Assembly: GCA_036339465.1 (NCBI GenBank)
Contig: JAYZAY010000003.1
Coordinates: 1-46,091, forward strand
Origin: Myxococcota bacterium
Lineage (GTDB): Bacteria; Myxococcota; XYA12-FULL-58-9; JABJBS01
Direction of reading: 5' to 3'
DNA length: 46,091 nucleotides
The position numbers and the translations under genes are program-made. Positions 8,266 through 46,091 of this stretch are shown here, piece by piece. The notes beneath the pieces were generated by a model that did no database searches, was not told where the DNA came from, and saw only the letters and a program-made list of their open reading frames with translations. The first letter of the stretch is position 1; each line of letters opens with the position of its first letter.

Positions 8266-9231
8266 TCACTCTTCGACGCAATGATCACAAAACCACTCGT
8301 AAGTTCGTAAAAGACCTCTCTCCAATCCAAAACGAGGACTCCAACCCAAATCCGTCATGCGCGAAGAGTCCAAGAGACGTCTCAAAGCACCATCGGGTTT
8401 AGAAGTATCCACCCCAACCTTCCCATCATAATTCACGACATTGGCAATCGCGGTGGCCAAATCTAAAATCGACGTTTCTTGTCCACTCCCAATATTGACA
8501 AATCCACCCAAATCCTGAGCGCTGGATTTATTTAAAAGAAGTAAACAAGCCTCCACCAAATCATCCACATACAAAAAATCCCTCCGGGGCTGCCCAGATC
8601 CCCAGAGCACGACATTTTCCAAATCTGAAACCTTCGCTTCATGAAAACGTCTCATCAACCCAGCAATCACATGAGAGTTTTCCGGTTCGAAATTCTCAAA
8701 AGGGCCAAAGAGGTTACTCGGAACCACACCGATAAAATTGGTTCCGTGTTGCTTGTTGTAGGCCTCTACCAGTTTCATGCCCGCTATTTTAGCAATGGCA
8801 TAGGGCTCATTGGTGACCTCAATGGGGCCTGTGAGTAAAGCACTTTCGGGACAGGGTTGCGCAGCATCCTTGGGATACATACAGCTCGACCCAAGATACA
8901 AAAGACTCTTCACACCATGACGATGTGCCGCTTCAATCACATGGGTATTCATCGCCAAGTTCTGGTAAAGAAAGTCGGCCGGAAACTCACTGTTGGCCTT
9001 AATTCCCCCCACCAAACCAGCCGCCATGATCACGTGATCTGGCCGGGACACCTTGAAATATTCCTCTACCAGAAGGCCGTTTAATAGGTCGATTTCCTCT
9101 CGGGGCGGCGCAAAAAGATATCGATAGCCCTCGCGCCGCAAAATGCGATAAAAGGCCGATCCCACCATTCCGGTCGCTCCGAAAAGCACAATTCGTTCTA
9201 ATTGCTGCATCCTATCAATCCTCAGGCCCAC
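8266..9231 (-). CDS. fcl: GDP-L-fucose synthase family NADPH-dependent C4-reductase (Fcl/ColC/MlghC-like)
   Basis: GATGMVG, AAGLVGGIKAN, LGSSCMYP, NEPYAIAK, SHVIAGL, VVLWGSG...RDFLYVDD. The start is probably the ATG near 9210. Confidence 0.85.
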   Translation of the reverse strand: MGLRIDRMQQLERIVLFGATGMVGSAFYRILRREGYRYLFAPPREEIDLLNGLLVEEYFKVSRPDHVIMAAGLVGGIKANSEFPADFLYQNLAMNTHVIEAAHRHGVKSLLYLGSSCMYPKDAAQPCPESALLTGPIEVTNEPYAIAKIAGMKLVEAYNKQHGTNFIGVVPSNLFGPFENFEPENSHVIAGLMRRFHEAKVSDLENVVLWGSGQPRRDFLYVDDLVEACLLLLNKSSAQDLGGFVNIGSGQETSILDLATAIANVVNYDGKVGVDTSKPDGALRRLLDSSRMTDLGWSPRFGLERGLLRTYEWFCDHCVEE

Positions 9232-9318
9232 CTGACATCAAAGCCAAGCATACGTCAGTCTCGTTCATGGTAACAAGTTTTCCAGATATTTAAAGGAACT
9301 TGCTTTCTACTCCCACCA

Positions 9319-10530
9319 TTGGCAACGTTTGTTAAGTATCTCACTGTGGAGGATAAAGCGGTGACCATAAACATCCCCTTGATGTCCAATAATATCATCG
9401 AAACCGACCGGGCCGCCGTTATCGAATTTCTTCAAGGTGATCCCATCCTTACTCAATCGTCGAAAGTGCGCGAATTTGAAGCCGCGTGGTCTAAATGGCT
9501 GGGCGTCAAGCACAGTCTCTTCATCAACTCCGGTTCATCGGCAAATCTGCTCACCATTGCCGCATTTCGACATTTATACGGCGAAGGTGAGATTATCGTG
9601 CCCCCCCTGACCTGGGTATCCGATATTTCCGCCTGCCTCCACACCCAAATGAAACCCGTCTTCGTGGATATCACCCCCAAAACCTTGGCCATGAACCCAA
9701 GGTCAGTCCTCGATGCCATCACCAACAACACCAAAGCCGTCTTCCTTACGCACATCCTTGGCCTCAATGGCCTAAGCACCGAGCTACTGGAGGGGCTAAA
9801 GGAGCGCAACATCCCCCTCATCGAAGATGTTTGCGAATCCCACGGGGCCACCTTTCAAGGCAAGAGACTGGGTTCCTACGGAAAAGTCTCTAACTTTTCT
9901 TATTACTATGCCCACCACATGAGCACCATCGAAGGCGGTATGATTTGTACAAACGACGATGATATCTATGAAGTGGTGCGTATGCTGAGATCCCATGGGA
10001 TGGTTCGGGAAGCATCCCGGGAAGAGACAAAAAACCATTATAAAACAGCCTATCCAGATCTAAACCCGGATTTCATTTTCACCTATCCAGCCTTCAACAC
10101 CCGTAGCACGGAAATGAATGCTGTGATTGGTCTGAGCCAACTTCCCAGGTTGGACGCGAACAACGAGCTGAGAACGAGAAACTTTAAACTCTTTCTCGAT
10201 AATCTGGACTCCGAGAAATACTTCACCGATTTTGATATCGAAGGATCCGTGAACTACGCCTTTATTTTGGTTCTGCGAAACAAAGATCAAGCCCTCTGGG
10301 ATAGACTCAGCACCGCCCTTCGAGAGGCAAAGGTGGAATTTAGACGGGGAACCAGCGGCGGTGGCAACCAACTACGGCAACCCTATCTTCGGGATAGATT
10401 TCCCGAAAAATATTATGAAAAATTCGTAGAAACAGACCACGTCCATTTTTATGGTTGCTACATCGGAAATTACCCCACCCTAGAAACAGACAAGATACTC
10501 CAACTCTGCAAACTACTGAATCAACTCTAA
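9319..10530 (+). CDS. DegT/DnrJ-family PLP enzyme of the ColD type (sugar C3-dehydratase)
   Basis: NSGSSANL, EDVCESHG and FSYYYAHHMSTIEGG. His replaces the Schiff-base Lys, as in ColD/E1 dehydratases. Confidence 0.8.
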   Translation: MATFVKYLTVEDKAVTINIPLMSNNIIETDRAAVIEFLQGDPILTQSSKVREFEAAWSKWLGVKHSLFINSGSSANLLTIAAFRHLYGEGEIIVPPLTWVSDISACLHTQMKPVFVDITPKTLAMNPRSVLDAITNNTKAVFLTHILGLNGLSTELLEGLKERNIPLIEDVCESHGATFQGKRLGSYGKVSNFSYYYAHHMSTIEGGMICTNDDDIYEVVRMLRSHGMVREASREETKNHYKTAYPDLNPDFIFTYPAFNTRSTEMNAVIGLSQLPRLDANNELRTRNFKLFLDNLDSEKYFTDFDIEGSVNYAFILVLRNKDQALWDRLSTALREAKVEFRRGTSGGGNQLRQPYLRDRFPEKYYEKFVETDHVHFYGCYIGNYPTLETDKILQLCKLLNQL

Positions 10531-10548
10531 CATTTTGAAAAATATGAT

Positions 10549-11292
10549 TCACCCGCAACCAATTGTTTCAGCGCATCGTTCCCAATTGGCAAAAAAAGTT
10601 TGGGCTTCTTCAAGTGTATCCGGCAAGCCAATGTCGATAAATCTCCCCGAAGAACAAAATCCTTGAACACCCAAAGAAATTCTCTGGGGAAGCACCTCAC
10701 GCTCCATGGAAACCTCACCCTCATTGTGGATGGCTTCCAACACCTCTCGCGCGAAGAGATAAATCCCGGCGTTAATCCAGCCAGGCCCCGCCTTTTCGCC
10801 AGATTTCTCCTCAAAAGCCAAAACTCGGTGACTCTCACTTAACTCAACTCGACCGTAGCGCCCTGTATCATCCACTTTTCGAACCACCATAGAAACCTTA
10901 GCGCCACTCTCCACATGGGCCTTGATGAAGCCATTGAGATCCACCTCGCAAAAGGAGTCACCATTCATCACCAGGACCAAAGGATTAGAAACCGCCGGTA
11001 GAGCATAGCGAACCGCTCCCCCAGTGCCCCGCCTTTCTTTTTCCCGAGAATATTTGATGCGCATCCCGCCATAGGAATTGCCTAGACAATCCTCGATCTG
11101 CTCAGCGAGGTAGCCCGTCGCCAACACCGACTCCGAAACCCAAGCCTTAGACAATTCATCCAACAAATAGGTAATAAACGGGCGCCCACAAACCTCTGCC
11201 AAAACCTTCGGTCGGTCAGAGACAACCGTTCTTAAGCGCGTACCTAAGCCCCCTGCCAATAAAACTGCGGTCAATGATATCTCTTGGGTCAT
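10549..11292 (-). CDS. hddC: Sugar-1-phosphate guanylyltransferase, HddC-like (D-glycero-alpha-D-manno-heptose 1-phosphate guanylyltransferase)
   Basis: LLAGGLGTRLRTVVSDRPKVLA, GTGGA, VMNGDS, INAGIY, FIDIGLP. The start is placed at ATG 11292, just after the stop of the upstream gene. Confidence 0.75.
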   Translation of the reverse strand: MTQEISLTAVLLAGGLGTRLRTVVSDRPKVLAEVCGRPFITYLLDELSKAWVSESVLATGYLAEQIEDCLGNSYGGMRIKYSREKERRGTGGAVRYALPAVSNPLVLVMNGDSFCEVDLNGFIKAHVESGAKVSMVVRKVDDTGRYGRVELSESHRVLAFEEKSGEKAGPGWINAGIYLFAREVLEAIHNEGEVSMEREVLPQRISLGVQGFCSSGRFIDIGLPDTLEEAQTFFANWERCAETIGCG

Positions 11293-11296
11293 GGGA

Positions 11297-12235
11297 TTAG
11301 GCGTTCTTAAACTGAGCGCGCCCCAACATTGAGTAGCCCTTGAGCAACTCCTCAATACCCACACCAATGCTACGCTTGGCTTCAAAGCCGGCTTCACGTA
11401 AGCGCTGATTTGAGACGATGTAATTTCGTTTGTCGGGATCTTCGCCTATTTCCCCATAGTGAATGTAGAAATTAGGAACAAACTTCTTCACTTCCTCGGC
11501 GAGTTCCGCCTTAGAGAGATTCGCATCATCCAGTCCCACATTGTAGGGCCGGCCCTTCATGGCATCAAAATTCTCGATGGAGTGCATAAAACAATCCGCA
11601 ATGTCTCTAATATGGATATAATTCCGTTTAAAATCCTGCTCAAAAAGCACGATATAACCGTCAGTCAAAGCGGCATAAACAAAATGATTCACCAAAAGGT
11701 CAAGACGCATTTTCGGACTCATCCCAAAAACGGTCGCCAATCTTAAAGTCACCACATTGGGAGAATCCAAGAGAATTCTCTCCGCCTCCACTTTGGTTTG
11801 GCCATAAAGAGTGATCGGTTCTAAGGGAGTATCTTCGGTGCAATAAACTTCGCCAGATTTTGTTCCGTATCCGCTGTTGGTAATGGGCATCAAAACCTGC
11901 TGGCTGGAACTGCGCAACCGGTTGAGCATCTGAACCGAATCAACATTGATGGCCTTGGTCGCCGCCCGGTCCTTCTCACAGGCCTTGGCCCCCACAATAG
12001 CCGCTAAGGGAATGATATGATCCACATCTCGAAGTGCTTCCACCATCACCCGTTCGTCACGGACATCACCGCAGGTGAACTCAAATTCAGGGCGATGACA
12101 CAAGTGAAAAAGGGTATGTTGATTAAACATCAGGTTATCCACTGCCCGGACCCGATAGCCCTTCGCCAACAACTCTTCACAAATCACAGAACCGAGATAA
12201 CCCGCCGCGCCTGTCACCAACACTCGTTCACTCAT
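11297..12235 (-). CDS. NAD-dependent epimerase/dehydrogenase resembling C. jejuni Cj1427 (GDP-heptose C4-dehydrogenase)
   Basis: GAAGYLG, IIPLAAIVGA, PITNSGYG, YGQTK, RLATVFGMSPKMRLDLLVN, FKRNYIHIRD and IGEDPDKRNY match the Cj1427 family sequence as I recall it. Confidence 0.75.
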   Translation of the reverse strand: MSERVLVTGAAGYLGSVICEELLAKGYRVRAVDNLMFNQHTLFHLCHRPEFEFTCGDVRDERVMVEALRDVDHIIPLAAIVGAKACEKDRAATKAINVDSVQMLNRLRSSSQQVLMPITNSGYGTKSGEVYCTEDTPLEPITLYGQTKVEAERILLDSPNVVTLRLATVFGMSPKMRLDLLVNHFVYAALTDGYIVLFEQDFKRNYIHIRDIADCFMHSIENFDAMKGRPYNVGLDDANLSKAELAEEVKKFVPNFYIHYGEIGEDPDKRNYIVSNQRLREAGFEAKRSIGVGIEELLKGYSMLGRAQFKNA

Positions 12236-12350
12236 ATTTAGTCTCCATGGTCTATTTGCCTACATCGACGGATCTCCGAGAGGCTTAACCCTTATTTCTT
12301 AAGTCCTACCAAAATCAAATTCATGGCCACAAACTTAAAAACCTATGTAA

Positions 12351-13340
12351 TTACGATAACTTCATCCCCAATTGAAGTTCATACTCCATCTCTGGAACCT
12401 CCCCAATAAGTGGCTCGTCCCCAATGAACCGGAGGGCCTCTTGGGTGGCCTCAATTTCCATTCGGGTCCGGCAATCCACCGACATGGAACCCATATGAGC
12501 GGTCATGAGGCAATTTTGAAGCTCGCTTAAGGGCCCCGAATACGGTTCCTGCTCAAAAACATCCATGGCCGCGCCCCCAATTTTATTCTGGGTCAGGGCT
12601 TGATGCAGGTCGGCTTCATGGATGATTCCTCCCCGAGACGTGTTGAGCAAAAGCGCATCCGATTTCATCGCCTCCAACTCGGCCAGGCTTATCAAATCAC
12701 GGGTATTTGGAGTTAAAGGCACATGCAGGCTGATGAGATCCGCACGGTCATAGATGGTTTCTTTTTCCACCCACTCAATGGGCAACCCCTCTCCAAGCTT
12801 CAAATTTGGCTGAATATCGTTGCAGAGTATTTTGGGACAATCAAAACCCCTCAGGTGCTCGAGCACCCTCGAACCTACACGGCCCAAACCGATCAACCCC
12901 ACCGTCACTTCTCCCAACCGTCGACCAAAATGGCGATGCCAAATCTTCTGATGCAAATCGGCGTTCGATAGATGAATCCCCCTAAGAAGGCTTAGCATGA
13001 GCCCCACAGAGAGTTCCGCCACCGCTGCAGCTGGCGCGTCTGGCGTATAGGAGACCCGCATTCCCAAACGGCGTGCAGCGGTCAAATCCACGCTGTCGAG
13101 CCCGATTCCAACCCTCGATATAAATTTAAGGCGTTTGGCCCGCTCTAAGACCCGCTCCGTGATTGGCTCAGTGCCCGCAATGAGAACGTCGAATTCGGGA
13201 ATCAGTTCGATTAATTCCTCTTCCGTGAGTTTTTTATTCAGGGGATTGATCACATATTCCAGCCCCCGCTCCTTCATCTGCTCTAAAGGAGTTGGATCTC
13301 GCGTGCCAAAGGGAACCGTGGTCACCAATATCCGAGTCAT
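12351..13340 (-). CDS. D-isomer-specific 2-hydroxyacid dehydrogenase (SerA-like, no ACT domain)
   Basis: SRVGIGLDSVD, GLIGLGRVG, ISLHVPLT, LNTSRG, DVFEQEP, TAHMGS. Confidence 0.85.
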   Translation of the reverse strand: MTRILVTTVPFGTRDPTPLEQMKERGLEYVINPLNKKLTEEELIELIPEFDVLIAGTEPITERVLERAKRLKFISRVGIGLDSVDLTAARRLGMRVSYTPDAPAAAVAELSVGLMLSLLRGIHLSNADLHQKIWHRHFGRRLGEVTVGLIGLGRVGSRVLEHLRGFDCPKILCNDIQPNLKLGEGLPIEWVEKETIYDRADLISLHVPLTPNTRDLISLAELEAMKSDALLLNTSRGGIIHEADLHQALTQNKIGGAAMDVFEQEPYSGPLSELQNCLMTAHMGSMSVDCRTRMEIEATQEALRFIGDEPLIGEVPEMEYELQLGMKLS

Positions 13341-13468
13341 AAACGCCCTCCTAAGATAACCGAGATGCTAAATCGTTATCAATTTTCGTCAATTTAATCA
13401 CACAATCAGGACCCAAGATTTCAGAGAATCGGGCCTCATTCCATGAAAAACATTTAAATCTGGTCACC

Positions 13469-15151
13469 ATGGATCTAGAGTGGTTGAAGATGACAACCAA
13501 AAAACCCGACCTCATGCCAAAAGTGAAAAACCTCCAGAGCGCGGCCATGGAAGCTTTTGGAAAAACCCAATATCGCGAATGCATCAGCCATCTCCAAGAA
13601 GCCCTTAAATTGGCGCCCAAACACCAAGAGACCTACTACAATCTCGGTGTGGCTCTCATGGCCATCAACGAGCAGCAGCCAGCGATTACCTGCTTCAAGC
13701 AAGCCATCAAACTCAACGCCCGTGACGCCGACGCATTCAACAATTTGGGTTTGGTCTATATCGCTCAGGGAAAAGTAACTGAAGCATCCAAAGCTTTTCA
13801 AAGTGCGATCGATATAAACCCAACTCTGCTCGAAGCCCACGGAAATCTGGGCAATGCCCTACGAACCCGAGGCTTACTTGAAGAATCCTGGAATTGCTTT
13901 CAACATGCCCTTCACATGGCACCCAAAAATGCAGACATCCATAAAACCCTACTCTTAACCTTGATGTACATGCCAGGCCAAACCAATCAAATGGTCTTTG
14001 AGCAGGTGTGCCGATTTCAGGATTCACACGAAACAATGCTGGGTGTCCGCCCGCCAATGCGCCAAACCTCAAATAAAAAACTTCGTATCGGTTATGTTTC
14101 GTCTGATTTTAAAAACCACCCCGTGGGAATCAACCTGGCTCCGCTCATCGAACATCACAACCACCAAGATTTTGAGATTTTTCTCTACGGCGAAGTTCCC
14201 AATCACGATGTATTCACCCAAAACTTTCAAACTTGGGCCGACCATTGGCGCAGCACCGTAAACAAAACCGATGCAGAAGTCGCGGCGCAAATAAAACACG
14301 ACCAAATCGACATTCTCATTTTTCTCGCCGGGATTCTCGATAACAATCGCCTTCTACTCGCCAACCAACGTGCTGCGCCCATACAAGTCAGCTACCACAA
14401 CCTCACCTCCACGGGGCTAAAGAGTATCGACTATTGGCTCACCGACTCCTACCTTCATCCCGAGAACAAGAGCGAATCGTTTACAGAAAGCCTGCTTCAT
14501 CTCCCCCAATTCTATGTCTATCCAGCCATGAATCAAAGTCCTGAAATCACTCCAACGCCAGCCCTCAAACAAGGGCACATCACCTTTGGTTCTTTCAACA
14601 ATCCCGCCAAACTCAATCACCAAGTCTTAGAACTTTGGGCCGCGTTATTACTGGCCACGAAAAACTCCAAACTCCTCTTAAAGTACGCCGGGGTATTTCA
14701 ATCCGCAGACAATCGAAATCGATTTCTGGAAAAATTTGCATCTTTCGGAGTCGACAAAGACCGAATCCTATTTCAATCTCAAAAAGAGCCACAGATAGAC
14801 CATCTTGCCCGGTATGGCCAGGTGGATATCGCCCTCGACCCCTTTCCCTTCAATGGTGCCACCACCACCTTTGAGGCTTTGTGGATGGGCGTGCCTGTGG
14901 TCACGCTAAAGGGCCACAATTTCCGTTCCCGAGCCGCCGGATCTATCCTACACATCCTCGGACTAGACCATTGGATTGCAGAGAGCGCCGAGCAATACAT
15001 AGCGATTGCCAAAAAAATGAGCTCAGATTTCCGTGCGCTTAATCAGCTTCGCCAAGGATTACGACCGCGAATGATAAAATCCAGATTGTGCGATGGCGCA
15101 ACCTACGCCAAACACCTAGAAAGCATTCTGAAAATCATCGTCACCTCGTAA
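13469..15151 (+). CDS. TPR-containing GT41 (O-GlcNAc transferase/SPINDLY-like) protein glycosyltransferase
   Basis: N-terminal TPRs (YYNLGVAL, FNNLGLVY, HGNLGNAL), then LRIGYVSSDFKNHPVG, RAAPIQVS, TFGSFNNPAKL and DIALDPFPFNGATTTFEALWMGVPVVTL. Confidence 0.9.
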   Translation: MDLEWLKMTTKKPDLMPKVKNLQSAAMEAFGKTQYRECISHLQEALKLAPKHQETYYNLGVALMAINEQQPAITCFKQAIKLNARDADAFNNLGLVYIAQGKVTEASKAFQSAIDINPTLLEAHGNLGNALRTRGLLEESWNCFQHALHMAPKNADIHKTLLLTLMYMPGQTNQMVFEQVCRFQDSHETMLGVRPPMRQTSNKKLRIGYVSSDFKNHPVGINLAPLIEHHNHQDFEIFLYGEVPNHDVFTQNFQTWADHWRSTVNKTDAEVAAQIKHDQIDILIFLAGILDNNRLLLANQRAAPIQVSYHNLTSTGLKSIDYWLTDSYLHPENKSESFTESLLHLPQFYVYPAMNQSPEITPTPALKQGHITFGSFNNPAKLNHQVLELWAALLLATKNSKLLLKYAGVFQSADNRNRFLEKFASFGVDKDRILFQSQKEPQIDHLARYGQVDIALDPFPFNGATTTFEALWMGVPVVTLKGHNFRSRAAGSILHILGLDHWIAESAEQYIAIAKKMSSDFRALNQLRQGLRPRMIKSRLCDGATYAKHLESILKIIVTS

Positions 15152-15175
15152 CCTCGATACATTGATCCCAACCTT

Positions 15176-15217
15176 GACTTCTAGGCATAGACTTCTAGGC
15201 ATAGACTTCTAGGCATA
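15176..15217. repeat. Tandem repeat (GACTTCTAGGCATA)x3 between convergent genes
   Basis: Three exact 14-bp copies at 15176, 15190 and 15204. Confidence 0.9.
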
Positions 15218-15230
15218 CCTTCTGTGCAAC

Positions 15231-15773
15231 TCATTCAAAAGTCGCCACATAATTCCCATACCTATGCTGGCGAGCATCCCAATCCGCCCTCAAAAGCTCC
15301 ATCCAAACTATCTCATGAGAAACACCATTTTTTACCATCTGCCGCTTCTTCATTTCCACCTCTCGGTATCCATGAATCTCGTGCATGCGAATAACATTGA
15401 TGTTTTCAGAAAAGACTGGGCCTTCAATTTTTTCTAGGTCAGACGCCCGCTCATAAAAGAGGTAATTGTAAAGACAGGGAGGCACAAAACCACCCAAGCG
15501 GCTATATTTGAGTTCGCCAATATACCATCCCCAAGAAGTCGTCTTCAGATCGGGATTGTAATCCGCAAGATTCACGACACCTATGGGCTGGCTGGCATAT
15601 TCAATCACCCAAGACATCGTCTCAGGCAACGCCACAATCCGCCTCAGCCAAGCCTCCTGCTTCTCTAAATCATACTCGACATCTGTCAATAGATACCGAT
15701 TAATTTCCGGTTGCACCCGCCAATCCATCGTAAGTTTGGCATCCGACAAACGTATTTTTCTAAACGCAAACAA
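15231..15773 (-). CDS. pseH: PseH-like GNAT N-acetyltransferase
   Basis: WRVQPEINRY...QEAWL...WGWYIG...VFSENINVIRMHEIHGY; located next to pseG and pseI. Confidence 0.7.
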   Translation of the reverse strand: MFAFRKIRLSDAKLTMDWRVQPEINRYLLTDVEYDLEKQEAWLRRIVALPETMSWVIEYASQPIGVVNLADYNPDLKTTSWGWYIGELKYSRLGGFVPPCLYNYLFYERASDLEKIEGPVFSENINVIRMHEIHGYREVEMKKRQMVKNGVSHEIVWMELLRADWDARQHRYGNYVATFE

Positions 15774-15990
15774 TGCTTACAATCCTAATTTGAACTTCTA
15801 TAAAAATATTTCACCAGAGTGGCTCGTTTTCAAAATAACTGGGCTTCAAAACATAGCGCCCAGCTTCCTAAAGTAACATTAAATATCCCAATAAGTTGAT
15901 TTCCTAAAGAATTTGTACCCAACTTATCACAAACCCGGTGGGCTCGAGAGATCTCGCCACCGCAGAAGTCACTTATGAGACAGGACGTCA

Positions 15991-17028
15991 TTGAGTATGG
16001 TAAACGTGGCGGTGAGAACCGATGCCAACACGAAGATCGGGACTGGCCACTTCATGCGGTGCTTAACCCTGGCCAATGCGCTTCAGCGGGGCGGAGCAGA
16101 GTGCGAATTCCTATGCCTGAGCGTCCCTCCTCCCCTACAACACCAAGCCGAAACCTACGGTCATCAAGTAACCCTGCTTAAAAGCGAAGCAGAGGTGCTG
16201 AAGCATCTCGCCTCCAAAAAAAATCACTGGCTGCTGGTCGACCACTACGACTTAGAGCTCCACTTTGAACAACAAGCTCGCCCCTTCACCCAAGCCCTGC
16301 TGGTCATTGAAGACCTCCAAGGGCGCCACCACGCCTGCACCCACCTTCTAGACGCATCTCCTCTCAGAGTTCCGGAGGATTTATCGGCGTTTATTCCCAC
16401 CACGTGCACCCTCTTTCTCGGCCCCCAATACGCATTGCTGCGGCCTGAATTTCTAGCGCATCGCAGACCCCACAGAGCCCGCTGGCAACGAGGCTTTATT
16501 TCCTTGGGCGGAGCTGACCCCAACAATCAATGCCTGGCTCTTTTAAACTTCATTCATCATTCTAAACACCTAAGAAAGTTTCAATGGACTTTAGTCGCCG
16601 GACCTGCAAACCCCCACCTCAAAAGCCTGAAGCACTTTGCCAGCACCTGCGACTTCAAGCTCACCCTGCTCCCATCCTCCAATCAAATCGCAGCCCTGAT
16701 GGCCGAACACGATTTCGCCATCGGTGCAGGAGGGGGCATGACCCTAGAGCGCGCCTGTATCGGGCTCCCCACACTCGCCATCGCCATCGCAGACAACCAA
16801 GAGCCCAGCATCCAAATGCTCCGGCAATTTGACCTCGCCGAAACCCTCGAACTCAAGGACCTAAATACCCAAAATATTGAAGAAAGCTTAAACCGCCTCC
16901 AAAAAAACTCATCCCTCTATTTTCAACGAAACCAAAACTTCGTCGATGGATTAGGAGCCCAGAGAATCGCCAAAGCCATGCTCGGGCTCAAAGACGCTCC
17001 ACCGGAGCAAAAGGTGACGCCATGCTGA
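15991..17028 (+). CDS. pseG: UDP-2,4-diacetamido-2,4,6-trideoxy-beta-L-altropyranose hydrolase
   Basis: RTDANTKIGTGHFMRCLTLA, LLVDHY, GPQYALLRPEF, GGADP, AIGAGG.TLER...GLP, ADNQ. Confidence 0.9.
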   Translation: MSMVNVAVRTDANTKIGTGHFMRCLTLANALQRGGAECEFLCLSVPPPLQHQAETYGHQVTLLKSEAEVLKHLASKKNHWLLVDHYDLELHFEQQARPFTQALLVIEDLQGRHHACTHLLDASPLRVPEDLSAFIPTTCTLFLGPQYALLRPEFLAHRRPHRARWQRGFISLGGADPNNQCLALLNFIHHSKHLRKFQWTLVAGPANPHLKSLKHFASTCDFKLTLLPSSNQIAALMAEHDFAIGAGGGMTLERACIGLPTLAIAIADNQEPSIQMLRQFDLAETLELKDLNTQNIEESLNRLQKNSSLYFQRNQNFVDGLGAQRIAKAMLGLKDAPPEQKVTPC

Positions 17029-18065
17029 TTGGAAACCAAAACGTAGGACAAGGCCATCCGCCGTTTATCGTGGCAGAAATGTCGGGCAATCATAATCAAT
17101 CCCTCGACCGAGCCCTGGCCATCGTGGATGCCGCGGCCCAAGCAGGTGCCCACGCCATCAAGCTCCAAACCTATACCGCCGACACCATCACCCTCGATGT
17201 CCAGGATAAAGAGTTCTACATCTCAGCCCCCAAGAGTCTGTGGAAAGGCCAATCCCTGCACGAGCTCTACCAAAAGGCCTATACCCCTTGGGAATGGCAC
17301 CGCCCCATCATAAAACGGGCCCAAGAAAAAGGTCTCTTGTGCTTCAGCTCTCCCTTTGACCACAGCGCCGTGGATTTCCTCGAAGCGCTCGGTGTACCCG
17401 CCTATAAAATCGCCTCATTTGAAAACACCGACCTCCCCTTGATTCGCAAAGTCGCCAGCACCGGTAAGCCCATCATCATTTCCACTGGCATGGCTTCCAT
17501 TGCCGAGCTCGGCGAAACCGTCGCCTGCGTACGAAATGCAGGATGCGAAGATCTCATCCTACTAAAATGTACCAGCACCTACCCAGCCAGCCCAGAAAAC
17601 ACCAACATCTCCACCATTCCCCACATGCGCGACCTTTTCCAATGCGAAGTCGGACTCTCAGATCATACCATGGGTGTGGGCGTTTCGGTGGCATCAGTCG
17701 CACTTGGAGCCACGGTCATCGAAAAACATTTCACCCTCAGCCGTGAAGATGGAGGAGTCGACAGCACCTTCTCCCTTGAACCCCATGAGCTTCAAAGTCT
17801 CGTGATAGAATCAAAACGGGCCTGGCAAGCGCTCGGCACCATCACCTATGGAGCGACCCAGGCCGAACAAAGCTCACACAAAAATCGGCGTTCCCTCTAC
17901 ATCGCGAAGGATATGCAACCCGGAGACATTCTAACCCCGGAAAACCTACGATGCGTGCGGCCTGGCCTCGGCCTCCCACCCAAGTACTATGACATTTGCT
18001 TAGGGCGTAAAGTCAAACAAGCCGCCCCAAAAGGTACCGCTATGACCTGGGAACTTATCGCTTAA
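17022..18065 (+). CDS. pseI: Pseudaminic acid synthase
   Basis: IVAEMSGNHNQS, KLQTYTADT, YTPWEWH, KIASFE, GLSDHT, IEKHFT and a C-terminal SAF domain; overlaps the end of pseG. Confidence 0.93.
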   Translation: MLIGNQNVGQGHPPFIVAEMSGNHNQSLDRALAIVDAAAQAGAHAIKLQTYTADTITLDVQDKEFYISAPKSLWKGQSLHELYQKAYTPWEWHRPIIKRAQEKGLLCFSSPFDHSAVDFLEALGVPAYKIASFENTDLPLIRKVASTGKPIIISTGMASIAELGETVACVRNAGCEDLILLKCTSTYPASPENTNISTIPHMRDLFQCEVGLSDHTMGVGVSVASVALGATVIEKHFTLSREDGGVDSTFSLEPHELQSLVIESKRAWQALGTITYGATQAEQSSHKNRRSLYIAKDMQPGDILTPENLRCVRPGLGLPPKYYDICLGRKVKQAAPKGTAMTWELIA

Positions 18066-29031: not shown

Positions 29032-30903
29032 AGATCACTTAAGAACATCACGCGCCACAATTCAACAGACCTGCCCCCGAAAACAATGAAGCCGTGCGAG
29101 CCCGCTCTCTGTGACATGTAAAACACATTGCTTAGACGCTGTTTCAAAATAAAAACTATAACGCCCCCCGAAATCACGGCTACTCGCGGTGGTTGATAAG
29201 CAGCATGGCCCACGCCTTTAGCGCGTGCTGAGACTGCAAACCACCGGCAAACAAGACATACACCCACCGTAGAGTAAGCCTCCTAAGCGAATTCAACTGT
29301 TAGTGGAGAGTTAATACTCCATAAAGAGTTCAGTGTCCTCTCCAAGCCGGAGAAACACTCAAATCCACCTCCGAAATGATGGCCGCATTTCAGTGCGCTT
29401 GCCGGGGACACTCAAATACCAGGTAATCGAAATACCTTGAACGCTTAAGAAACGAACCCGATGTAACAACGGTCTAATCATCCAGGTCTAATCATCCAGA
29501 GTCATTTAATTCTCGCGAATCAGCGTGAATCAGTCTCACATTACCAAACTTTCCTCGACCTCATTCACCGAATTAACCCATCCTCGGTGGCCAGTCGATC
29601 CCCACCGCCTTCTACTATGAACACCGTCCACTAAACACTTCACCCTGGACACGAACAAACCGATCCATAACCCGATCTCAAAAGATCGTCACCCATACTC
29701 AAAGTGGATTTACTTCAATATCGGAGGTTTAGTTTCGGAGAAGTCCCAGAAAGACCCAAATGCCTTAGTATCTTCCGAATCAGCGCCCCTGAATGATAAA
29801 CACCGCGTTGGTCATGCGGCCCTTGCATTTGGATCGCTTGAAAACGTCAGTTTCAAATACCCGCGCATTAACCGGTGCCAAGCCACGCGCTTTTGGCTGC
29901 AACGCCTGGCGCACTCCCTCCCCTCCCCTCCCCTCCTTTAAATTTGAATCCTTTCGCGACCACAAATTTATGAATCTCTTTTTTCAAGACTGGTGCCGGG
30001 TGTGGCCACCTCCTCCTTACGAAAGGAGCCCATTTTAACGCAGCAGACGCTACACACACTGGCTGTTTGAATGGCCTGGAGACTAAGTCGAATTCAGTCC
30101 TTGGGATGCCTTTCTACGCTGAACTGAATACTGGCTAGGTCCTCACAGTTTTTGGCGACCAAAAGCCTTATACAACCACGGCATTTTTGGTACATCCTTG
30201 GCCAAGAGTGTCGGAGCACCTTGCGAACCCCTACGGTAACTTTGGCTAATATCAAAACAAGCCGTCAAGGGCTTCTCCCTTTAAAGGTCGCCAGACCAAT
30301 CCAATTTTTCTTTTAGTAGAGGAGCCACCGCCCTCCTTTCTTGATTTCATAATATATTTGGTTTGGGCTTTTCCCAAGCACTGCCCCGCCGTAGCGACAC
30401 CAGTTAGGTAACCATAGAAATCGTGTGGTGGAACTATATTATCAAAGCGCTAGGTTCAGAACCGCGATTGCTCGTCAACATCCTTGCCCCCTACACCGGC
30501 ATGAAAAAAATAGATGATGTCACTTCATCGCCAAACTTCACAGTGGATCCGTATGATTTTAGGACTTACGTATTAGGGGAAATAAGATCTAGATAATAAG
30601 ATAGTCTTTGGCTGTCCAAGCCGGAAAAACGCGAAAGCTGTTTAAGAAATCCCAAAAACAAAAAGCCTTCAAAGCTACTTTAGGTGTCGATATCAACACA
30701 GCCACGGAGAAAGATCATTAAAATACGCCGATAACCAGCGATTATCCCTAAACTTAAATAAGTTCACTGCTAACATAGGCTGGATGTTTTCTTGCTAAAG
30801 ATAAGCGGTAAACATACAGTTAGGGTAAGTAGGCCAGATGGCCGCTTAACCTATCTGTTTTAGCTTTGCGTGAAGCTCGAACGGAAAAAAGCCGGAGGGT
30901 AGT

Positions 30904-31959
30904 ATGTCTTACACTGCGACTAAGATTGTCCAGATATTTGGAAACACAAGCCATAAAAACACTTTACTGCAAGCTGAAGGTAAAATCATCCCGGCTGCCA
31001 CCCGAGAGAGGCGCGGAAAAGTTAGCGCAAGAGTGTGGCAAGTCCAAGACCTGCCAAAAATAGGTAAGCACTACGGCTGGCTGCCAAATAACCTAGAAGA
31101 GCCGGTGGCACTCTCGGTTTTTTCATCCAAAGGGGGCTCCTACAAAACAACCCTGGCAACGACGCTCGCGAGGTCCGCCGCCCTTAACGCTATCCCCACT
31201 TGCCTCGTGGGACTAGATTACCAAATGGATGCCACAAGATTCTTCGGCTTCGACTCACAAATTGAAGACAATAATGAGGACCTAGACCTCGAAGATCTAA
31301 GCACGCAACTTGTTGAATTTAAGGGACTTCATGACTTCTACTCAAGCCCCACAAAGACATCCCTAAGCGACATCATTCAGCCCGTAGATGATTTCGGAGG
31401 AATGCTCTCAATCGTGCCTGAGTCTTCCAAGCTAAGTAGCCTAGACATGCAGCTTGCCTCACAAACCCTTCGGGAATTTTGGCTTAGAGATAACATCATC
31501 AACCCGCTTAAGGAACGATTCAAACTCATCATTATTGACTGCAGCCCAAGCTGGAACTTACTCACTGCAAATGCCCTTGCTGCGAGTGATCTAATGGTCT
31601 CACCGCTAGAATGCCAAATTAACCATTGGCGCGGATTTACTGACTTTCAAACATACATAACGAACTTCAGGGCCAAAATAGGGCTAAACTACCCCGTGGT
31701 CTACGTTCCAACTAAGCTCGACACGCGCCGGAAAATAAGCAGCCAGATCCACCGCTGGTACCTAAATGAAATCGGGCCTGCCTGCACCACCACAGCCATC
31801 AAAAATTCAAGTAAAATCGAGGAAGCGGCGGCCAGCGGTCTCTCAATTTTCGAGCACGCTCCCCTAGCCCCGGCCTCGACCATGTTTCGAGATTTAACCC
31901 TCGAAATCTGGAATTATCTCCCTGCTCAAAACCCCGGCAAGCAACGACGAGATAACTAG
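30904..31959 (+). CDS. parA: ParA-family partition ATPase with an N-terminal extension (type Ia-like)
   Basis: Deviant Walker A SKGGSYKTT, A' motif GLDYQMDAT, Walker B IIIDCSPS, NALAASD; about 65-aa N-terminal HTH-like extension; GGAGG RBS. Confidence 0.9.
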   Translation: MSYTATKIVQIFGNTSHKNTLLQAEGKIIPAATRERRGKVSARVWQVQDLPKIGKHYGWLPNNLEEPVALSVFSSKGGSYKTTLATTLARSAALNAIPTCLVGLDYQMDATRFFGFDSQIEDNNEDLDLEDLSTQLVEFKGLHDFYSSPTKTSLSDIIQPVDDFGGMLSIVPESSKLSSLDMQLASQTLREFWLRDNIINPLKERFKLIIIDCSPSWNLLTANALAASDLMVSPLECQINHWRGFTDFQTYITNFRAKIGLNYPVVYVPTKLDTRRKISSQIHRWYLNEIGPACTTTAIKNSSKIEEAAASGLSIFEHAPLAPASTMFRDLTLEIWNYLPAQNPGKQRRDN

Positions 31960-31961
31960 TA

Positions 31962-34900
31962 ATGGTAAAAGCGTTAGGGTTACTCGAGGCCGATCGGCGG
32001 CGTCGGAAAAGGACCCCAAAACAACACGAGCGGTCTGTGTCCTCGGGAGATCCGCTCGCGCCGGTTAAAACCAACATAACCCAACTATCGCCCCCTGGTA
32101 GCTCAAACGCAGCACCAGCCCTCGGCGAGTATCCAAGCGAGGATCAGTTAAGAACGGATTCTCAAACTGCTCCTCATGAGGGCCGGGCTTCGGTCGGGCA
32201 AAATGCCAGTTACCTCGGCTCCCAGCCTAAACCGGACCTCATAAGTGAGGAGCGGCTACAGCCAGAAGCCCAAACTGATCCTGAAGAAAAGCAGACGGAC
32301 GGTCACCTAATTAAGAGTGGTCTCCAATCTGGACCTAAACTGATCCTAAAAGCTAAGGATCAGTTTAGCGATGAAATGCAAACTGATCCCCCGAAAACAA
32401 CAAGCGTGCATGGCTCAACCGCTAAACCGGTCCTCACGAATGAGGATCAGTTATCAGAAACGAACTTAACCGCTCCTCAGCACACAAGTAGCTCTCCGTC
32501 AGCGGTGGTTAAACCGATCCTGCCAGATGAGGTACAGTTAACAAAATTGCGCCAAACCGATCCCGGCACAACCGATGGCTTGATTACAACAATGGCTAAA
32601 CTGCACCTCCCAGACGAGGCTCAGTTTAGCGCACCACCCCAAACCGATCCTCGAAGTTCCAAAAGCCTTGTCCAGCCGAACGTTAAACCGATCCTACGCC
32701 ATGAGGCTCACTTAAGCACGCCTATGCTAACTGATCCTCCGCAAATGGACGAGAATGTCGGGGCATCCGCTAAACCGTACCTCGAAAATGAGGACCACTT
32801 AAGAGCCCTAGGCAAAACTGTTCCTGGCAATCTTCAGACCAACGCGCAGCAACCAAACGAGACGCCTCCTAAGACCCCTAAACCGGCCCTCAAAAAGGGG
32901 GTACAGTTAAGTTCACAACCCCAAACCGATCCTGAGGGGATCCAAAACAACCCCGGAATCCAGGATATTCCCGTGGTCACGGCTAAACCGCTCCTCAGGG
33001 ATGAGGATCAGTTAAGTGCCCAAACCGAAACCAGCCAGGCTCAACAGCCAATTGATACTCATGAGCGCGCCAGCGCCCAGCATTCACAAGCTAAACCGGT
33101 CCTCGTAAATGAGGATCAGTTAAGTCCCCACACCGAAGCAAGCCAGGCTCAACAGCCAATTGATACTCATGAGCGCGCCGCCGGCCAGCATTCACAAGCT
33201 AAACCGGTCCTCAGGCATGAGGATCAGTTAAGTCCCCGAACCGAACCTTGCCGGGCTCAACAGCCAATTGATACTCATGAGCGCGCCGCCGGCCAGCATT
33301 CACAATCTAAACCGGTCCTCAGAAATGAGGATCAGTTAACCCACCACACCGAAACCAGCCAGGCTCAACAGCCAATTGATACCAATGAGCTCGCCGCCGG
33401 CCAGCAAGCACAATCTAAACCGGTCCTCAGAGATGAGGATCAGTTAACCCACCACACCGAAACCAGCCAGGCTCAACAGCCAATTGATACCAATGAGCTC
33501 GCCGCCGGCCAGCAAGCACACCCCAAACCGATACCCTCATCTGAGAATGTCCCGCAAACCCAAAATTGGTCCCTGCCCAAGCAAGGCCCATCGCATCCTC
33601 AGCAAACGCATACTGATACCGAACCAAAAGCTAAACCGATCTACAAAGTTCAGGATCGGTTAAGTCAACAGCTCGAAACTGATCCTATCCTTAACCAAAG
33701 CGATCCCCGCGCCACTCAAAGCGATCCCCGCGCAATCACTAAAGTGAACCTCCACCATGAGGATCACTTAGTAGGGCAACACCCAACCGATCCTCAGCAA
33801 GCAGGATCACTTAGCAGGGCCCCAGGATCACTTAGAGCCAACCCAGGATCACTTATCCAAACAGATCCTCACATCACCACCAAACCGATCCCGACACACC
33901 AGGATCACTTAGATAAGCCCACTTTAACCGAACCTCAGCCAAGAGGATCCGTTAATGAAGCCCCAGGATCACTTAACTTGAAAGAGGGATCAGTTAACCT
34001 AACCGCTCCCCAAACCACCCCTAAACTGATCTCCACACACCGAGATCAGTTAACATCATCCCCATCCTTCACGCCCTCTCCCACAGCCACTAAACCCATC
34101 CTTCCTAAAGGCGACCTAAAGCAACTAATCCTCCGTTTTCTTGCCGAGGAAGCCATAAAAGACCAAACCAATACCACGCGCTTTATTCGATACAGTGAAA
34201 TCGCAAATGCAGTCACTACCACGGAGAACTACGCCCGAAAGGCCGTCAAGCTCTTAGTGCTCACGGGGCATTGTCGTAAAATACAAGAAAAGCGCGGCCG
34301 CCAGGGTCCAAATCGCGGGGTTCAATATAGCGTGCCTGAGGCCATCATACGCTTAAGTCTAGCCTCACCTAAACCGGTCCTCAATCCCGCTCTAAACCGG
34401 TCCTCAGTAAAAGAGAAAGACAATTCCACCGCCGCTAAACCGATCCTCGTAACCGATCCTGCTACCGTAGTAGTTAGTAGTAGTAATATATTAACAACAA
34501 CTACTAACTTAGAACTCGAAGATTTTTTACATAAACACGGACCTGCCTGCGATGAATTTGGAATTGGTGCTCAAGATTTAATTTCTATTCTAAAACTTGG
34601 CACCCACACCAATCTCGAATCGATCTTAGAATCTAGCGAACACCTCTTGTTTTATTTGCAGTCACAACACAGCGACGGCATCACCAAACCAAAAGCTTGG
34701 TTTATGCGCCAACTAAAGTCTGGCTACTATGCACGCCCAGCAGGTTTTGTCGGCTGGGAGGAAAGACAGCTCGATCTCCAGCTTCAGGCCCGACGAGAAA
34801 AGACTGCCAGACTCAAGCAGCTTAAAGAGCAAATTCTTGAGGAAGACTTTCAAATCTGGCTCTCAGAGCAAGCACAGTACGATTTAAAGAGAATCTGCGG

Positions 34901-34973
34901 CGTAATAGAACCCACAGGCAGACTCGGACAAGAAAAGCTCAAAGCGCATTTCGTAGGGCTTAACCGACCGTAA
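31962..34973 (+). CDS. Putative replication initiator / DNA-binding protein: about 700-aa repeat-derived N-terminus, winged-HTH, S/T linker and helical C-terminal domain
   Basis: wHTH-like LILRFLAEE...IRYSEIANAVTTTENYARKAVKLLVLTGHCRK...RGVQYSVP (about 34116-34337); VVVSSSNILTTTTN linker; C-terminal ITKPKAWFMRQLKSGYYARPAGF; starts 2 bp after the parA stop. Confidence 0.6.
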   Translation: MVKALGLLEADRRRRKRTPKQHERSVSSGDPLAPVKTNITQLSPPGSSNAAPALGEYPSEDQLRTDSQTAPHEGRASVGQNASYLGSQPKPDLISEERLQPEAQTDPEEKQTDGHLIKSGLQSGPKLILKAKDQFSDEMQTDPPKTTSVHGSTAKPVLTNEDQLSETNLTAPQHTSSSPSAVVKPILPDEVQLTKLRQTDPGTTDGLITTMAKLHLPDEAQFSAPPQTDPRSSKSLVQPNVKPILRHEAHLSTPMLTDPPQMDENVGASAKPYLENEDHLRALGKTVPGNLQTNAQQPNETPPKTPKPALKKGVQLSSQPQTDPEGIQNNPGIQDIPVVTAKPLLRDEDQLSAQTETSQAQQPIDTHERASAQHSQAKPVLVNEDQLSPHTEASQAQQPIDTHERAAGQHSQAKPVLRHEDQLSPRTEPCRAQQPIDTHERAAGQHSQSKPVLRNEDQLTHHTETSQAQQPIDTNELAAGQQAQSKPVLRDEDQLTHHTETSQAQQPIDTNELAAGQQAHPKPIPSSENVPQTQNWSLPKQGPSHPQQTHTDTEPKAKPIYKVQDRLSQQLETDPILNQSDPRATQSDPRAITKVNLHHEDHLVGQHPTDPQQAGSLSRAPGSLRANPGSLIQTDPHITTKPIPTHQDHLDKPTLTEPQPRGSVNEAPGSLNLKEGSVNLTAPQTTPKLISTHRDQLTSSPSFTPSPTATKPILPKGDLKQLILRFLAEEAIKDQTNTTRFIRYSEIANAVTTTENYARKAVKLLVLTGHCRKIQEKRGRQGPNRGVQYSVPEAIIRLSLASPKPVLNPALNRSSVKEKDNSTAAKPILVTDPATVVVSSSNILTTTTNLELEDFLHKHGPACDEFGIGAQDLISILKLGTHTNLESILESSEHLLFYLQSQHSDGITKPKAWFMRQLKSGYYARPAGFVGWEERQLDLQLQARREKTARLKQLKEQILEEDFQIWLSEQAQYDLKRICGVIEPTGRLGQEKLKAHFVGLNRP
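32139..34460. repeat. Intragenic array of palindromic units CTAAACYGRTCCTC-N6-GAGGATCAGTTAAG plus single half-sites (putative iterons/centromere)
   Basis: Left arms at 32227, 32335, 32422, 32509, 32596, 32683, 32770, 32878, 32983, 33091, 33199, 33307, 33415, 33523 (degenerate), 33631, 33739, 33880 and 34021. Half-sites at 33802/33823/33844, 33943/33964/33985, 34369, 34392 and 34435. Confidence 0.9.
32983..33522 (+). repeat. Five near-identical 108-bp tandem repeats (36 aa each)
   Basis: Units like AKPVLRxEDQLxxxTExSQAQQPIDTxExAAGQxSQ; a recent amplification inside the older array. Confidence 0.95.
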
Positions 34974-45404: not shown

Positions 45405-46091
45405 TCATTCGATTACCATACCAATATTACCACCCCAATCGAGAATCTCATCGGCAAATACGCCAGCAAAAAAAGCGGGGGCGAAGGTGACGGAAGCAAT
45501 GCACATGGCGATCACTCCAGCGGCGCCCAAGAAGGCGCTGGGGAGAATAAAAGTTGCCAATAGGGTGGCCACCGAGGCGACGAAGATCACGCCCATGGCG
45601 CGCTTGAATAAATATCGCCCCCAACTCTGTGGAGGGGGATCATCGGTTTCGGCTACAGGTTCAAGGCTAACCAGGTTTTGCGTGGGGTGGGTGGCGAGGG
45701 CGGCGTTTCGAGCTTTGGCAACCTGTGGGTTTAGCTCTGTTACGAGGGTTTGATTTCGGTAGCCTGTGGTCGCCAATTGGGCCCTTGAGAAAGGGGAGAT
45801 ACCGTTGTTTTGCCGAAAGAGTTTCTCCAGGGTGCTTTGGTTGTAGGTGCGACCGTCAGAGGCCACCACTGGGTGGGTCATCGTGTCGTAGGTGATGGGG
45901 TCTTCGAGGTGTGCGTCTTGGTCGCCTAGGGGGCTGGCAGAGAGGCGGTCGCGCATGTTTTGGTCGGGCCAGATTTTACTTGGGGTGACGGGGCGATTGT
46001 CGGTGGGGAGGTGACCGTGCTCGTTGACATAGGGGTAAATTGCGTCGGCGTTGTAGGTGAGGCCGTTTGGGGCAATGACCGGATCGGTTAA
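45405..46091 (-). CDS. Tandem U-box domain protein with a C-terminal transmembrane hairpin (5' end outside the window)
   Basis: The frame is open to the window edge. LTDPVIAPNGLTYNADAI...LPTDNRPV...IWPDQNMR is followed by LEDPITYDTMTHPVVASDGRTYNQSTL...SPFSRAQL...RNQTL and two hydrophobic helices. Confidence 0.75.
   Translation of the reverse strand, partial: LTDPVIAPNGLTYNADAIYPYVNEHGHLPTDNRPVTPSKIWPDQNMRDRLSASPLGDQDAHLEDPITYDTMTHPVVASDGRTYNQSTLEKLFRQNNGISPFSRAQLATTGYRNQTLVTELNPQVAKARNAALATHPTQNLVSLEPVAETDDPPPQSWGRYLFKRAMGVIFVASVATLLATFILPSAFLGAAGVIAMCIASVTFAPAFFAGVFADEILDWGGNIGMVIE

Follow-up and report, generated by a model that had tools for sequence, protein, structure and literature searches.

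An array of DNA sites kept open inside the reading frame of a ParA-linked gene of a Myxococcota bacterium

Repeats within a long coding sequence raise the question of whether it is the peptide or the DNA that has been selected to repeat. This question is posed by an open reading frame (ORF) of 1003 residues (31962–34973, forward strand) in contig JAYZAY010000003.1 of a Myxococcota bacterium (assembly GCA_036339465.1). The contig, which is C3 of the 102 contigs of this 4.17 Mb genome, was analyzed over its entire length of 46,091 bp (the window). The ORF starts 2 nt after the stop codon of a parA gene, of which it is the conserved partner. According to the original prediction, one short motif is repeated within it in both orientations and in several frames, and the apparent protein repeats are probably by-products of a DNA site array that has to remain open. 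The analysis described here indicates that, very probably, the ORF contains a site array for the product of its own gene and that this array is under selection at the DNA level.

The repeated element is a half-site of 11 nt, WAACYGRTCCT, of which 49 copies with at most one mismatch are located within the ORF. These fall into five of the six classes of orientation and frame, with 15 forward copies in frame 0, 14 in frame 1 and one in frame 2, and with 13 reverse copies in frame 1 and six in frame 2. As had been predicted, the forward motif is read as KPVL or KPIL in frame 0 (for example at 32424 and 32511), as TDP, within QTDP, in frame 1 (for example at 32272 and 32641) and as LNRSS in frame 2 (34394), and the reverse motif is read as EDQL in frame 1 (for example at 32443 and 33004) and as GSL or GSV in frame 2 (33803–33986); the two copies 23 bp apart are likewise in different frames, that at 34371 in frame 0 and that at 34394 in frame 2. 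The motif is not common elsewhere in the genome, as the same prediction implied: the exact form of WAACYGRTCCT occurs 33 times in the 4.17 Mb, with 26 copies in C3:32100–34500 and seven elsewhere, and all 26 exact copies of the window are inside the ORF. The narrower form AAACYGRTCCT, at no more than one mismatch, has 39 matches in the window, 38 of which lie within 32140–34460, compared with a mean of 3.56 and a maximum of 7 in 100 shuffles of the window.

The half-sites are organized into units. The main array (32139–34054) comprises 18 of these, with half-sites in both orientations, and repeats every 87, 105, 108 or 141 bp. A unit consists of a forward half-site, a reverse half-site at +19 bp and a second forward half-site at +24 bp, and the first two form a dyad of 32–34 bp, CTAAACCGGTCCTC-N6-GAGGATCAGTTAAG (also written CTAAACCGGTCCTC-N6-GAGGATCAGTTA). 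The spacings between half-sites are 19, 21, 24 and 43/44 bp. Five young tandem units of 108 bp, which are 90% alike, occupy 32982–33521, and at 33802–33996 the GSL/GSV type of reverse half-site runs at a spacing of 21 bp, in frame 2. A second cluster, containing four forward half-sites, is located at 34369–34460, with starts at 34371, 34394, 34437 and 34450 in frames 0, 2, 0 and 1, respectively.

The array is under constraint at the DNA level, as is apparent in four independent ways. In a comparison of 15 units, from which three of the young copies were left out, the mean information content at codon positions 1, 2 and 3 is 1.42, 1.16 and 1.23 bits inside the sites and 0.46, 0.48 and 0.56 bits outside them; the motifs of the older units have thus persisted while their spacers have diverged. 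Within the sites, third codon positions are about as conserved as first and second positions, without codon periodicity, and the free variation of third positions that would have contradicted the original prediction is not seen. Furthermore, codon choice tracks the position within the site and not the encoded amino acid. Proline is encoded by CCG in 13 of 15 KPxL motifs versus CCT in ten of 13 TDP motifs, leucine by CTC in 11 of 15 KPxL motifs versus TTA in all 13 EDQL motifs, and glutamine by CAG in all 11 EDQL motifs versus CAA in all seven QTDP motifs; in the genome, the codon usage is 18% for CCG, 21% for CCT, 23% for CTC and 12% for TTA. Among the five young units, one of 22 columns within sites is variable versus 24 of the 86 outside them (Fisher P = 0.022), and the variable spacer columns are distributed 9/8/7 across codon positions 1/2/3. 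In addition, contigs from four marine or seawater metagenome runs were compared with the window, giving 26 listed differences in 32139–34460 (27 more exist). None of the 26 is in a site at no more than one mismatch, such sites making up 23% of the region (binomial P = 0.001; some of the differences are linked on a single contig, and repeats may be misplaced). One of those listed is in a weaker site, which it shifts towards the consensus, and 21 of the 26 are non-synonymous.

The same comparison yielded two further observations. A contig of run X2 omits exactly 432 bp between 33023 and 33456, corresponding to four 108 bp units in frame; either the array naturally varies in copy number or the assembly collapsed here. 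In run X15, which is only guessed to be RNA, three contigs cover 33100–34078 with 10, 16 and 1 differences, and no inference about transcription was drawn from them; the stretch was found in no run recorded as RNA.

The frame that houses the array has been maintained. In the frame of the ORF the array part is free of stop codons, whereas the remaining five frames contain 32, 63, 42, 35 and 43. Not one dinucleotide shuffle of the array out of 300 stays open, and a stop-free array frame is likewise found in three relatives, that is, in four family members in all. The first base of the site is A in all 15 forward sites of frame 0, where T would create a TAA stop, and T in 17 of 19 reverse sites. 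Between residues 600 and 725 the sole in-frame alternative start is one TTG. The view of the protein repeats as by-products of a DNA site array that must stay open is therefore supported, both by the constraint on the DNA and by the maintained frame.

The protein encoded downstream of the main array provides a candidate for the factor that binds the sites. The C-terminal 297 residues were modelled by AlphaFold on an alignment of 111 sequences, with a mean predicted local distance difference test score (pLDDT) of 89.3, which exceeds 95 over model residues 12–95 (34113–34364, forward strand). In this model the segment has the fold of a winged helix–turn–helix (wHTH) domain, with a three-helix bundle and a β-hairpin wing. 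The best structural match by VIA is 3dv8 (Z = 9.4 and a root-mean-square deviation of 2.2 over 75 aligned residues), of the Crp/MarR/ArsR type, 46 chains have Z of at least 8, and a profile search of the PDB returned Crp/MarR chains at E = 5e-4. With the two-domain model as query, all Foldseek rows were wHTH domains and none reached E ≤ 0.001; AspA and TubR, centromere binders of the wHTH type, are among these weak rows. Model residues 114–136 (pLDDT < 50) form a disordered linker, which is encoded by the second site cluster together with an AT-rich element. This is followed by a conserved helical C-terminal domain (34494–34964, forward strand), predicted as a five-helix bundle and then a long helix, for which a model of the domain alone has a pLDDT of 96.0.

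At the other end of the protein, a basic peptide of residues 1–45 (31962–32096, forward strand; MVKALGLLEADRRRRKR...) is a candidate ParA contact on the basis of its conservation among relatives. A hydrophobic start motif, M-[AP]-x-[TS]-L-x-x-[LI], is present in 32 of 52 long relatives, the net charge of the first 40 residues is at least +3 in 27 of them, and the motif R[PASK][WYF] occurs within 65 residues in 23, in many cases as R-P-W after basic residues. The region encoded by the array is rich in Pro, Gln, Thr and Ser. The parA gene itself (30904–31959, forward strand) encodes a Walker-type partition ATPase of 351 residues with ∼70 residues before the Walker A box. Its product matches Pfam AAA_31 (2.6e-24) as well as CbiA and the PHROG 'ParA-like partition protein' (6.4e-38), its relatives in the PDB are Soj/ParA, and its matches to SopA/RepA-type families are weak and under the cut-off. 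In all four loci with upstream DNA, parA lies immediately upstream of the partner ORF.

The arrangement recurs in a protein family. In a search of 1.84 billion proteins, the C-terminal piece found 110 representative clusters at E ≤ 1e-3, including 62 at 1e-10, which are mostly metagenomic; the relatives are 107 to 912 residues long, mostly with an N-terminal extension that is variable and rich in repeats. The family is present in four of 401 sampled genomes of the phylum, the present genome being counted. A separate homologue search returned only two proteins, a tblastn search of the C-terminal 297 residues against 72,556 PLSDB plasmids gave no match, and scans of metagenome contigs and genome contigs with a single protein as query found no relative. 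One of the two homologues, relative P0014, bears a precomputed Pfam label, PF28068.1, which the Pfam copy used here did not report, and a newer Pfam release may already model part of the family.

DNA could be read for four relatives, namely G025, G067, a paralog on contig C16 and G122, and in each the motif is a different one that is nearly or wholly confined to the ORF. In G025, AACCGGGGAC occurs 23 times in the locus, with all 23 copies inside the ORF at a spacing of 22 bp; it uses all six classes of orientation and frame (5, 5, 5, 4, 2 and 2) and is a word that is stop-free in every frame. In G067 all 25 copies of AAAGGGGTCC are inside the ORF, in the C16 paralog 32 of 33 copies of a ATCGGAACCTC-like motif, and in G122 all 13 copies of AAAGGGGAAC, in six classes. 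In all four relatives the sites are split between the DNA preceding the wHTH and the linker that follows it. Moreover, the wHTH varies jointly with the sites: relative P0001 shares 89% identity with the window protein in the C-terminal domain but ∼25% in the wHTH, and its linker repeats are others. Contigs of runs X1 and X2, which come from different studies, match 34466–34825 at ∼91% and are unrelated upstream of 34466. To judge from these alignments, they belong to a sister element that shares the C-terminal domain but has neither this wHTH nor these sites, with the junction at the AT-rich dyad. The contigs of relatives carry genes of mobile elements, in one case TraG/TraD, HNH and an integrase and in another a MobA/TraI relaxase.

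The labels attached to the relatives were also considered. Among the 111 relatives, PHROG matches were obtained to phrog_428 in 11, to phrog_678 ('O-like') in eight (best E = 8.1e-07, in the wHTH only), to phrog_270 in six and to the DnaD-like phrog_186 in five. Pfam gave HTH_36 in 13, DnaD_N in eight and Phage_rep_O (PF04492) in four, the last at a best E of 0.021, which is below the cut-off, and with no match of the window protein. Look-alikes in the ESM Atlas are labelled HTH_36, RepC or DnaD_N, and one look-alike cluster has RP-C in 19% of its members; these are leads only. Taken together, the labelled remote hits of the relatives concentrate on phage replication initiators and lean towards these over partition proteins.

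A further element adjoins the second site cluster. At 34467–34508 lies an AT-rich imperfect dyad, (TAG)2-T-(TAG)3-TAATATATTA-ACAACAACTACTAAC, with the sequence GTAGTAGTTAGTAGTAGTAATATATTAACAACAACTACTAAC, which is read as VVVSSSNILTTTTN. Its (TAG)2-T-(TAG)3-TAA-TAT part begins 7 nt past the last two half-sites. The dyad has a GC content of 0.27 and a DNA hairpin energy of −6.9 kcal/mol, and between 28 and 38 kb only two 50-mer stretches have a GC content of ≤0.24, one of which the dyad overlaps. The word TAGTAGTAG has two copies in the whole genome on both strands, versus ∼34 expected from base composition, and one of them is in the dyad. AT-rich DNA with TAG repeats is found at the matching linker position in four of the five loci, namely in the window, L003 (C16), L002 (G025) and L007 (G122), where it has been retained despite a protein identity of ∼30% and is read as VVSSS...TTTT. 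Serine is encoded by AGT in all ten codons of the TAG dyad in three loci, compared with a genome usage of 18%. On the sequence evidence, the TAG dyad is conserved at the DNA level in these four of five loci.

What was observed directly comprises the array, its constraint at the DNA level, the open frame, the wHTH fold, the synteny with parA and the recurrence in relatives with different motifs. The mechanism proposed alongside these observations is as follows. The 2.3 kb stretch would be a cis-acting array bound by the wHTH encoded in the 3′ part of the same gene, with dimers on the dyads of 32–34 bp and on the extra half-sites, all on the same helical face given the spacings of 19–24 and 43/44 bp; the dimers could plausibly form through the long C-terminal helix. 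Dimer binding across the array would build a large nucleoprotein complex. The peptide encoded by the array would be a nearly neutral disordered tether, the DNA being selected as sites. Together, parA and the ORF would form the core that maintains a plasmid, chromid or integrative element, in which the four linker sites and the adjoining TAG-repeat dyad would serve as an iteron-type origin, the large upstream array would provide the complex acted on by ParA, as a centromere and possibly in copy control, and the N-terminal peptide would contact ParA. The reason for housing the array in the reading frame would be that both ends of the protein are needed, the N-terminal peptide and, ∼700 codons downstream, the wHTH with the C-terminal domain; since these are on one chain, the intervening DNA must stay open.

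Two versions of this proposal should be distinguished. In the first, a self-recognized array serves both as origin iterons and as a centromere within the gene of a ParA-linked maintenance protein; this dual reading is preferred here, tentatively and at somewhat less than an even chance. The second goes further and is correspondingly more doubtful, although possible: a single gene would be origin, centromere and ORF, its product would be both initiator and ParA-activating adaptor, the arrays, translated as a disordered tether in whichever frames are stop-free, would constitute the whole cis-acting maintenance region, and parA with this gene would be a complete two-gene replicon core of an undescribed family.

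Several known systems share parts of this arrangement. In ori-lambda, dyad iterons of the initiator and an AT-rich tract lie in the central part of gene O and encode a dispensable linker between the DNA-binding and C-terminal domains, and extra iterons add residues to the protein (PMC7466680). Likewise, the linker DNA of the window ORF holds four sites and an AT-rich tract inside its own gene, with predicted binding by its own product. In lambda O the specificity module, that is, the binding domain and its sites, varies while the C-terminal domain is conserved; similarly, the window family varies the wHTH and the sites and keeps the C-terminal domain, as in P0001, and the wHTH of some relatives weakly matches 'replication initiation O-like' PHROGs. 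However, lambda has four to six iterons over ∼100–150 bp in one frame, whereas the window has ∼50 half-sites over 2.3 kb in five classes, with sites both before and after the binding domain. Furthermore, the gene is coupled to parA and not to a P-type helicase loader, and its product lacks the Phage_rep_O match.

In pSK41 Rep, an N-terminal winged helix binds four Rep boxes located centrally in rep, and an ori-encoded linker leads to a helical C-terminal domain (PMC5703833). The window protein has the same layout of wHTH, site-encoded linker and helical C-terminal domain, but differs in its large upstream array and in the coupling to parA. In pSK41 the par locus is separate. The window protein has no Pfam match to RepA_N, the Foldseek rows to pSK41-type RepA_N structures (4pql/4pt7) are weak (E ≃ 0.08) and reflect the generic wHTH only, and an Atlas lead from the C-terminal domain to Bac_RepA_C has a score of 0.80–0.81.

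Among partition systems, F sopC consists of 12 repeats of 43 bp, each with a 16 bp inverted repeat (PMC3177203). As in F sopABC and P1 parABS, a Walker ParA is followed in the window by a DNA-binding partner, the site-specific binding of which is predicted, and by repeated centromere-like sites; unlike these systems, the partner is without ParB/Srx and the array is inside the partner frame, not downstream of it. Origins inside rep genes are described for repABC and P1 repL (PMC3155836, PMC9948254) and for pT181 (PMC5703833), and Rickettsia pRM shuttle vectors have been built on dnaA-like and parA genes (PMC9004397). Synonymous recoding of such sites has been carried out for the lambda O iterons (PMC7466680) and for P1 repL (PMC9948254). 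Like repABC, the window would combine a partition ATPase and a replication function in one operon, with a predicted origin inside the initiator coding sequence, but it has two genes where repABC has a separate ParB (RepB), and no sequence relation to RepC was detected. Finally, the DnaA-trio consists of at least three trinucleotides with the consensus 3′-GAT-5′ (5′-TAG) beside initiator boxes, followed by AT-rich DNA (PMC8287927). The TAG repeats of the window match this consensus beside the last sites, a resemblance that is a lead only; the trio is read by the AAA+ domain of DnaA, whereas the ORF product has no AAA+ domain and the locus has no DnaA box. A search of the open-access literature found no description of the family or of a centromere or iteron array inside the ORF of a ParA partner.

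The replicon context of the locus was also considered. In keeping with the maintenance-core reading, dnaA and the canonical parB of the genome, the latter its sole PF02195 match (contig C30), both lie off C3. GC skew in this genome is strong and uniform, with a mean absolute value of 0.12–0.17 on most, although not all, contigs of at least 20 kb. Minus-to-plus turns occur on few contigs, two of them at parA–ORF modules, and on both module contigs the turn is at the 3′ end of the ORF, sharp at 29.5 kb on C16 and weak at ∼35 kb on C3. Gene-strand bias agrees weakly with the usual polarity. The skew turn as proof of an origin was nevertheless dropped, since a turn on C23 lies among metabolic genes.

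A number of points weigh against the dual reading. The turn on C3 runs only to ∼0 and then to +0.06 and +0.10; the third turn of the origin type, at ∼11500 on C23, is among ordinary metabolic genes with no such module, and a ParA-like gene on C21 lies within a local skew blip, so that skew turns in this genome may mark island borders or rearrangements. Contig C3 has no terminal overlap that would indicate circularity, and most of its genes have cellular functions, sugar biosynthesis among them. Neither the C3 nor the C16 locus has a DnaA-box pattern nearby, and G067, the most distant relative, is without the TAG dyad. The ∼50 sites far exceed the number used by known iteron origins. With respect to the protein, the 1003-residue product has no family match in Pfam (E up to 1), NCBIfam or PHROGs, and the initiator-like matches come from a minority of relatives, concern the wHTH only and are under curated cut-offs. 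For the C-terminal domain, the best structural match among 48,161 PDB representatives has Z = 5.5, which is not meaningful and does not establish a new fold, and the Atlas leads linking it to Rep C-terminal families score only 0.80–0.83. The N-terminal peptide is moderately conserved, its start motif being common to the 32 of 52 relatives only. Lastly, recognition of the motif by the wHTH is itself a prediction.

Of the alternatives, the one that survives best is that the module serves partition and nothing else. The ORF would then be a ParB analogue with a wHTH replacing the ParB fold, the array a centromere like sopC or parC, and the AT-rich dyad a linker or bending element. This is a possibility of some substance, if a doubtful one. 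The conserved pair, in which the start of the partner is coupled to the parA stop, is in keeping with it, as are the type-Ia-like N-terminal extension of ParA, the basic N-terminal peptide at the place where ParB-type partners bear their ParA-activating peptide, the weak Foldseek rows to AspA and TubR, and arrays that resemble known plasmid centromeres in their size, mixed orientation and helical phasing. However, the ParB/Srx N-terminal domain (PF02195) was not found in the ORF product by Pfam at E up to 1. Partition alone leaves the conservation of the TAG dyad beside the linker sites in four of five loci unexplained, the labelled remote hits favour replication initiators, and parA with an initiator but without ParB is also a known minimal replicon layout (PMC9004397).

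It is unlikely that the product is purely an initiator of the Rep/O type, with all sites being iterons for origin function, copy control and handcuffing, and with ParA acting through another partner or through non-specific contacts. The initiator-like matches of the relatives, the Atlas leads, the TAG dyad and the P0001 mosaic would all suit such a protein, and precedents exist in the location of ori-lambda in gene O (PMC7466680) and in the Rep boxes of pSK41 (PMC5703833). However, no third conserved gene that could be the partner of ParA adjoins the module in any locus, the sites outnumber those of known iteron origins about tenfold, and neither the conservation of the N-terminal peptide nor the ∼700 codons kept open would be explained.

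Less probable again is that the array is bound by some other factor, for example a host factor or ParA's N-terminal helix–turn–helix, or that it has a regulatory or silencing role and merely happens to overlap the ORF. The N-terminal domain of type-Ia ParAs binds operator DNA, and the ParA encoded here has an N-terminal extension. Nevertheless, the motif differs in each relative yet stays confined to the partner ORF, the wHTH and linker repeats of P0001 change jointly while the C-terminal domain is constant, and no half-site at no more than one mismatch is present in the 1 kb upstream of parA, the expected location of an operator. That the repeats matter as peptide, in a Pro/Gln/Thr/Ser-rich region of the kind seen in many disordered repeat proteins, or that the N-terminal 700 codons are untranslated and the real start is near the wHTH, is hardly credible. 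The first idea is opposed by the reading of a single DNA word in five frame classes in this ORF and in six in G025, by the conservation of third positions within the sites and by spacer changes that are mostly non-synonymous. The second is opposed by the absence of stops from the array frame in four family members (versus 32–63 in the other frames), by stop avoidance at site position 1, by the conserved N-terminal peptide and by a lone TTG as the only alternative start between residues 600 and 725.

In the window, Rfam at gathering thresholds gave no match and ARAGORN no tRNA, and promoter-like and terminator-like sites are not more common than in shuffled sequence. A 330 bp element at 29590–29940, ∼1 kb 5′ of parA, shares ∼70–78% identity with DNA located upstream of parA on C16 and was considered as a component specific to parA modules; this was rejected, and the element is regarded as a dispersed repeat, because further copies are present on C53, C22, C84, C73 (in two places) and C54. 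It has no match in Rfam. At 8266–18065 lies a cluster of sugar-nucleotide and nonulosonic-acid genes (epimerases, a DegT aminotransferase, a nucleotidyl transferase, NeuB, GT41-TPR and GNAT), so that C3 carries mostly cellular cargo. An ORF of 183 residues on the reverse strand (45405–45956) has a U-box domain (7e-08); this ubiquitin-ligase fold is of eukaryotic type and unusual for a free-living bacterium. At its end, the contig shares its final 40 nt (46052–46091) with C54, where they occur at position 101, and the assembly was therefore probably broken at a repeat.

That the sites of a binding protein can lie within its own gene and encode a linker is already known from lambda O, pSK41 Rep and other rep genes. 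New here are the scale, with ∼50 half-sites and ∼700 codons, the way in which all frames without stops and both orientations are used, the placement of the sites in two parts around the wHTH, the link to ParA, and a protein family without a name in the libraries searched. The known self-embedded sites of lambda O and pSK41 Rep number four to six each, and the present locus takes the same principle to an extreme: throughout a ParA-linked family, DNA sites in up to six frames seem to dictate ∼700 codons of a genuine reading frame. This provides a natural case of overlapping selection, in which selection for sites is combined with the constraint to stay open and the peptide is otherwise neutral. 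Such 'repeat proteins' are liable to be misread in annotation as having repeats at the peptide level. The two-gene cassette, should it prove to be a self-contained replicon core, could be of use in hosts that are hard to transform. For plasmid biology, the findings point to an undescribed maintenance module of marine bacteria and mobile elements, in which the possession by each member of a motif of its own is the raw material of incompatibility groups.

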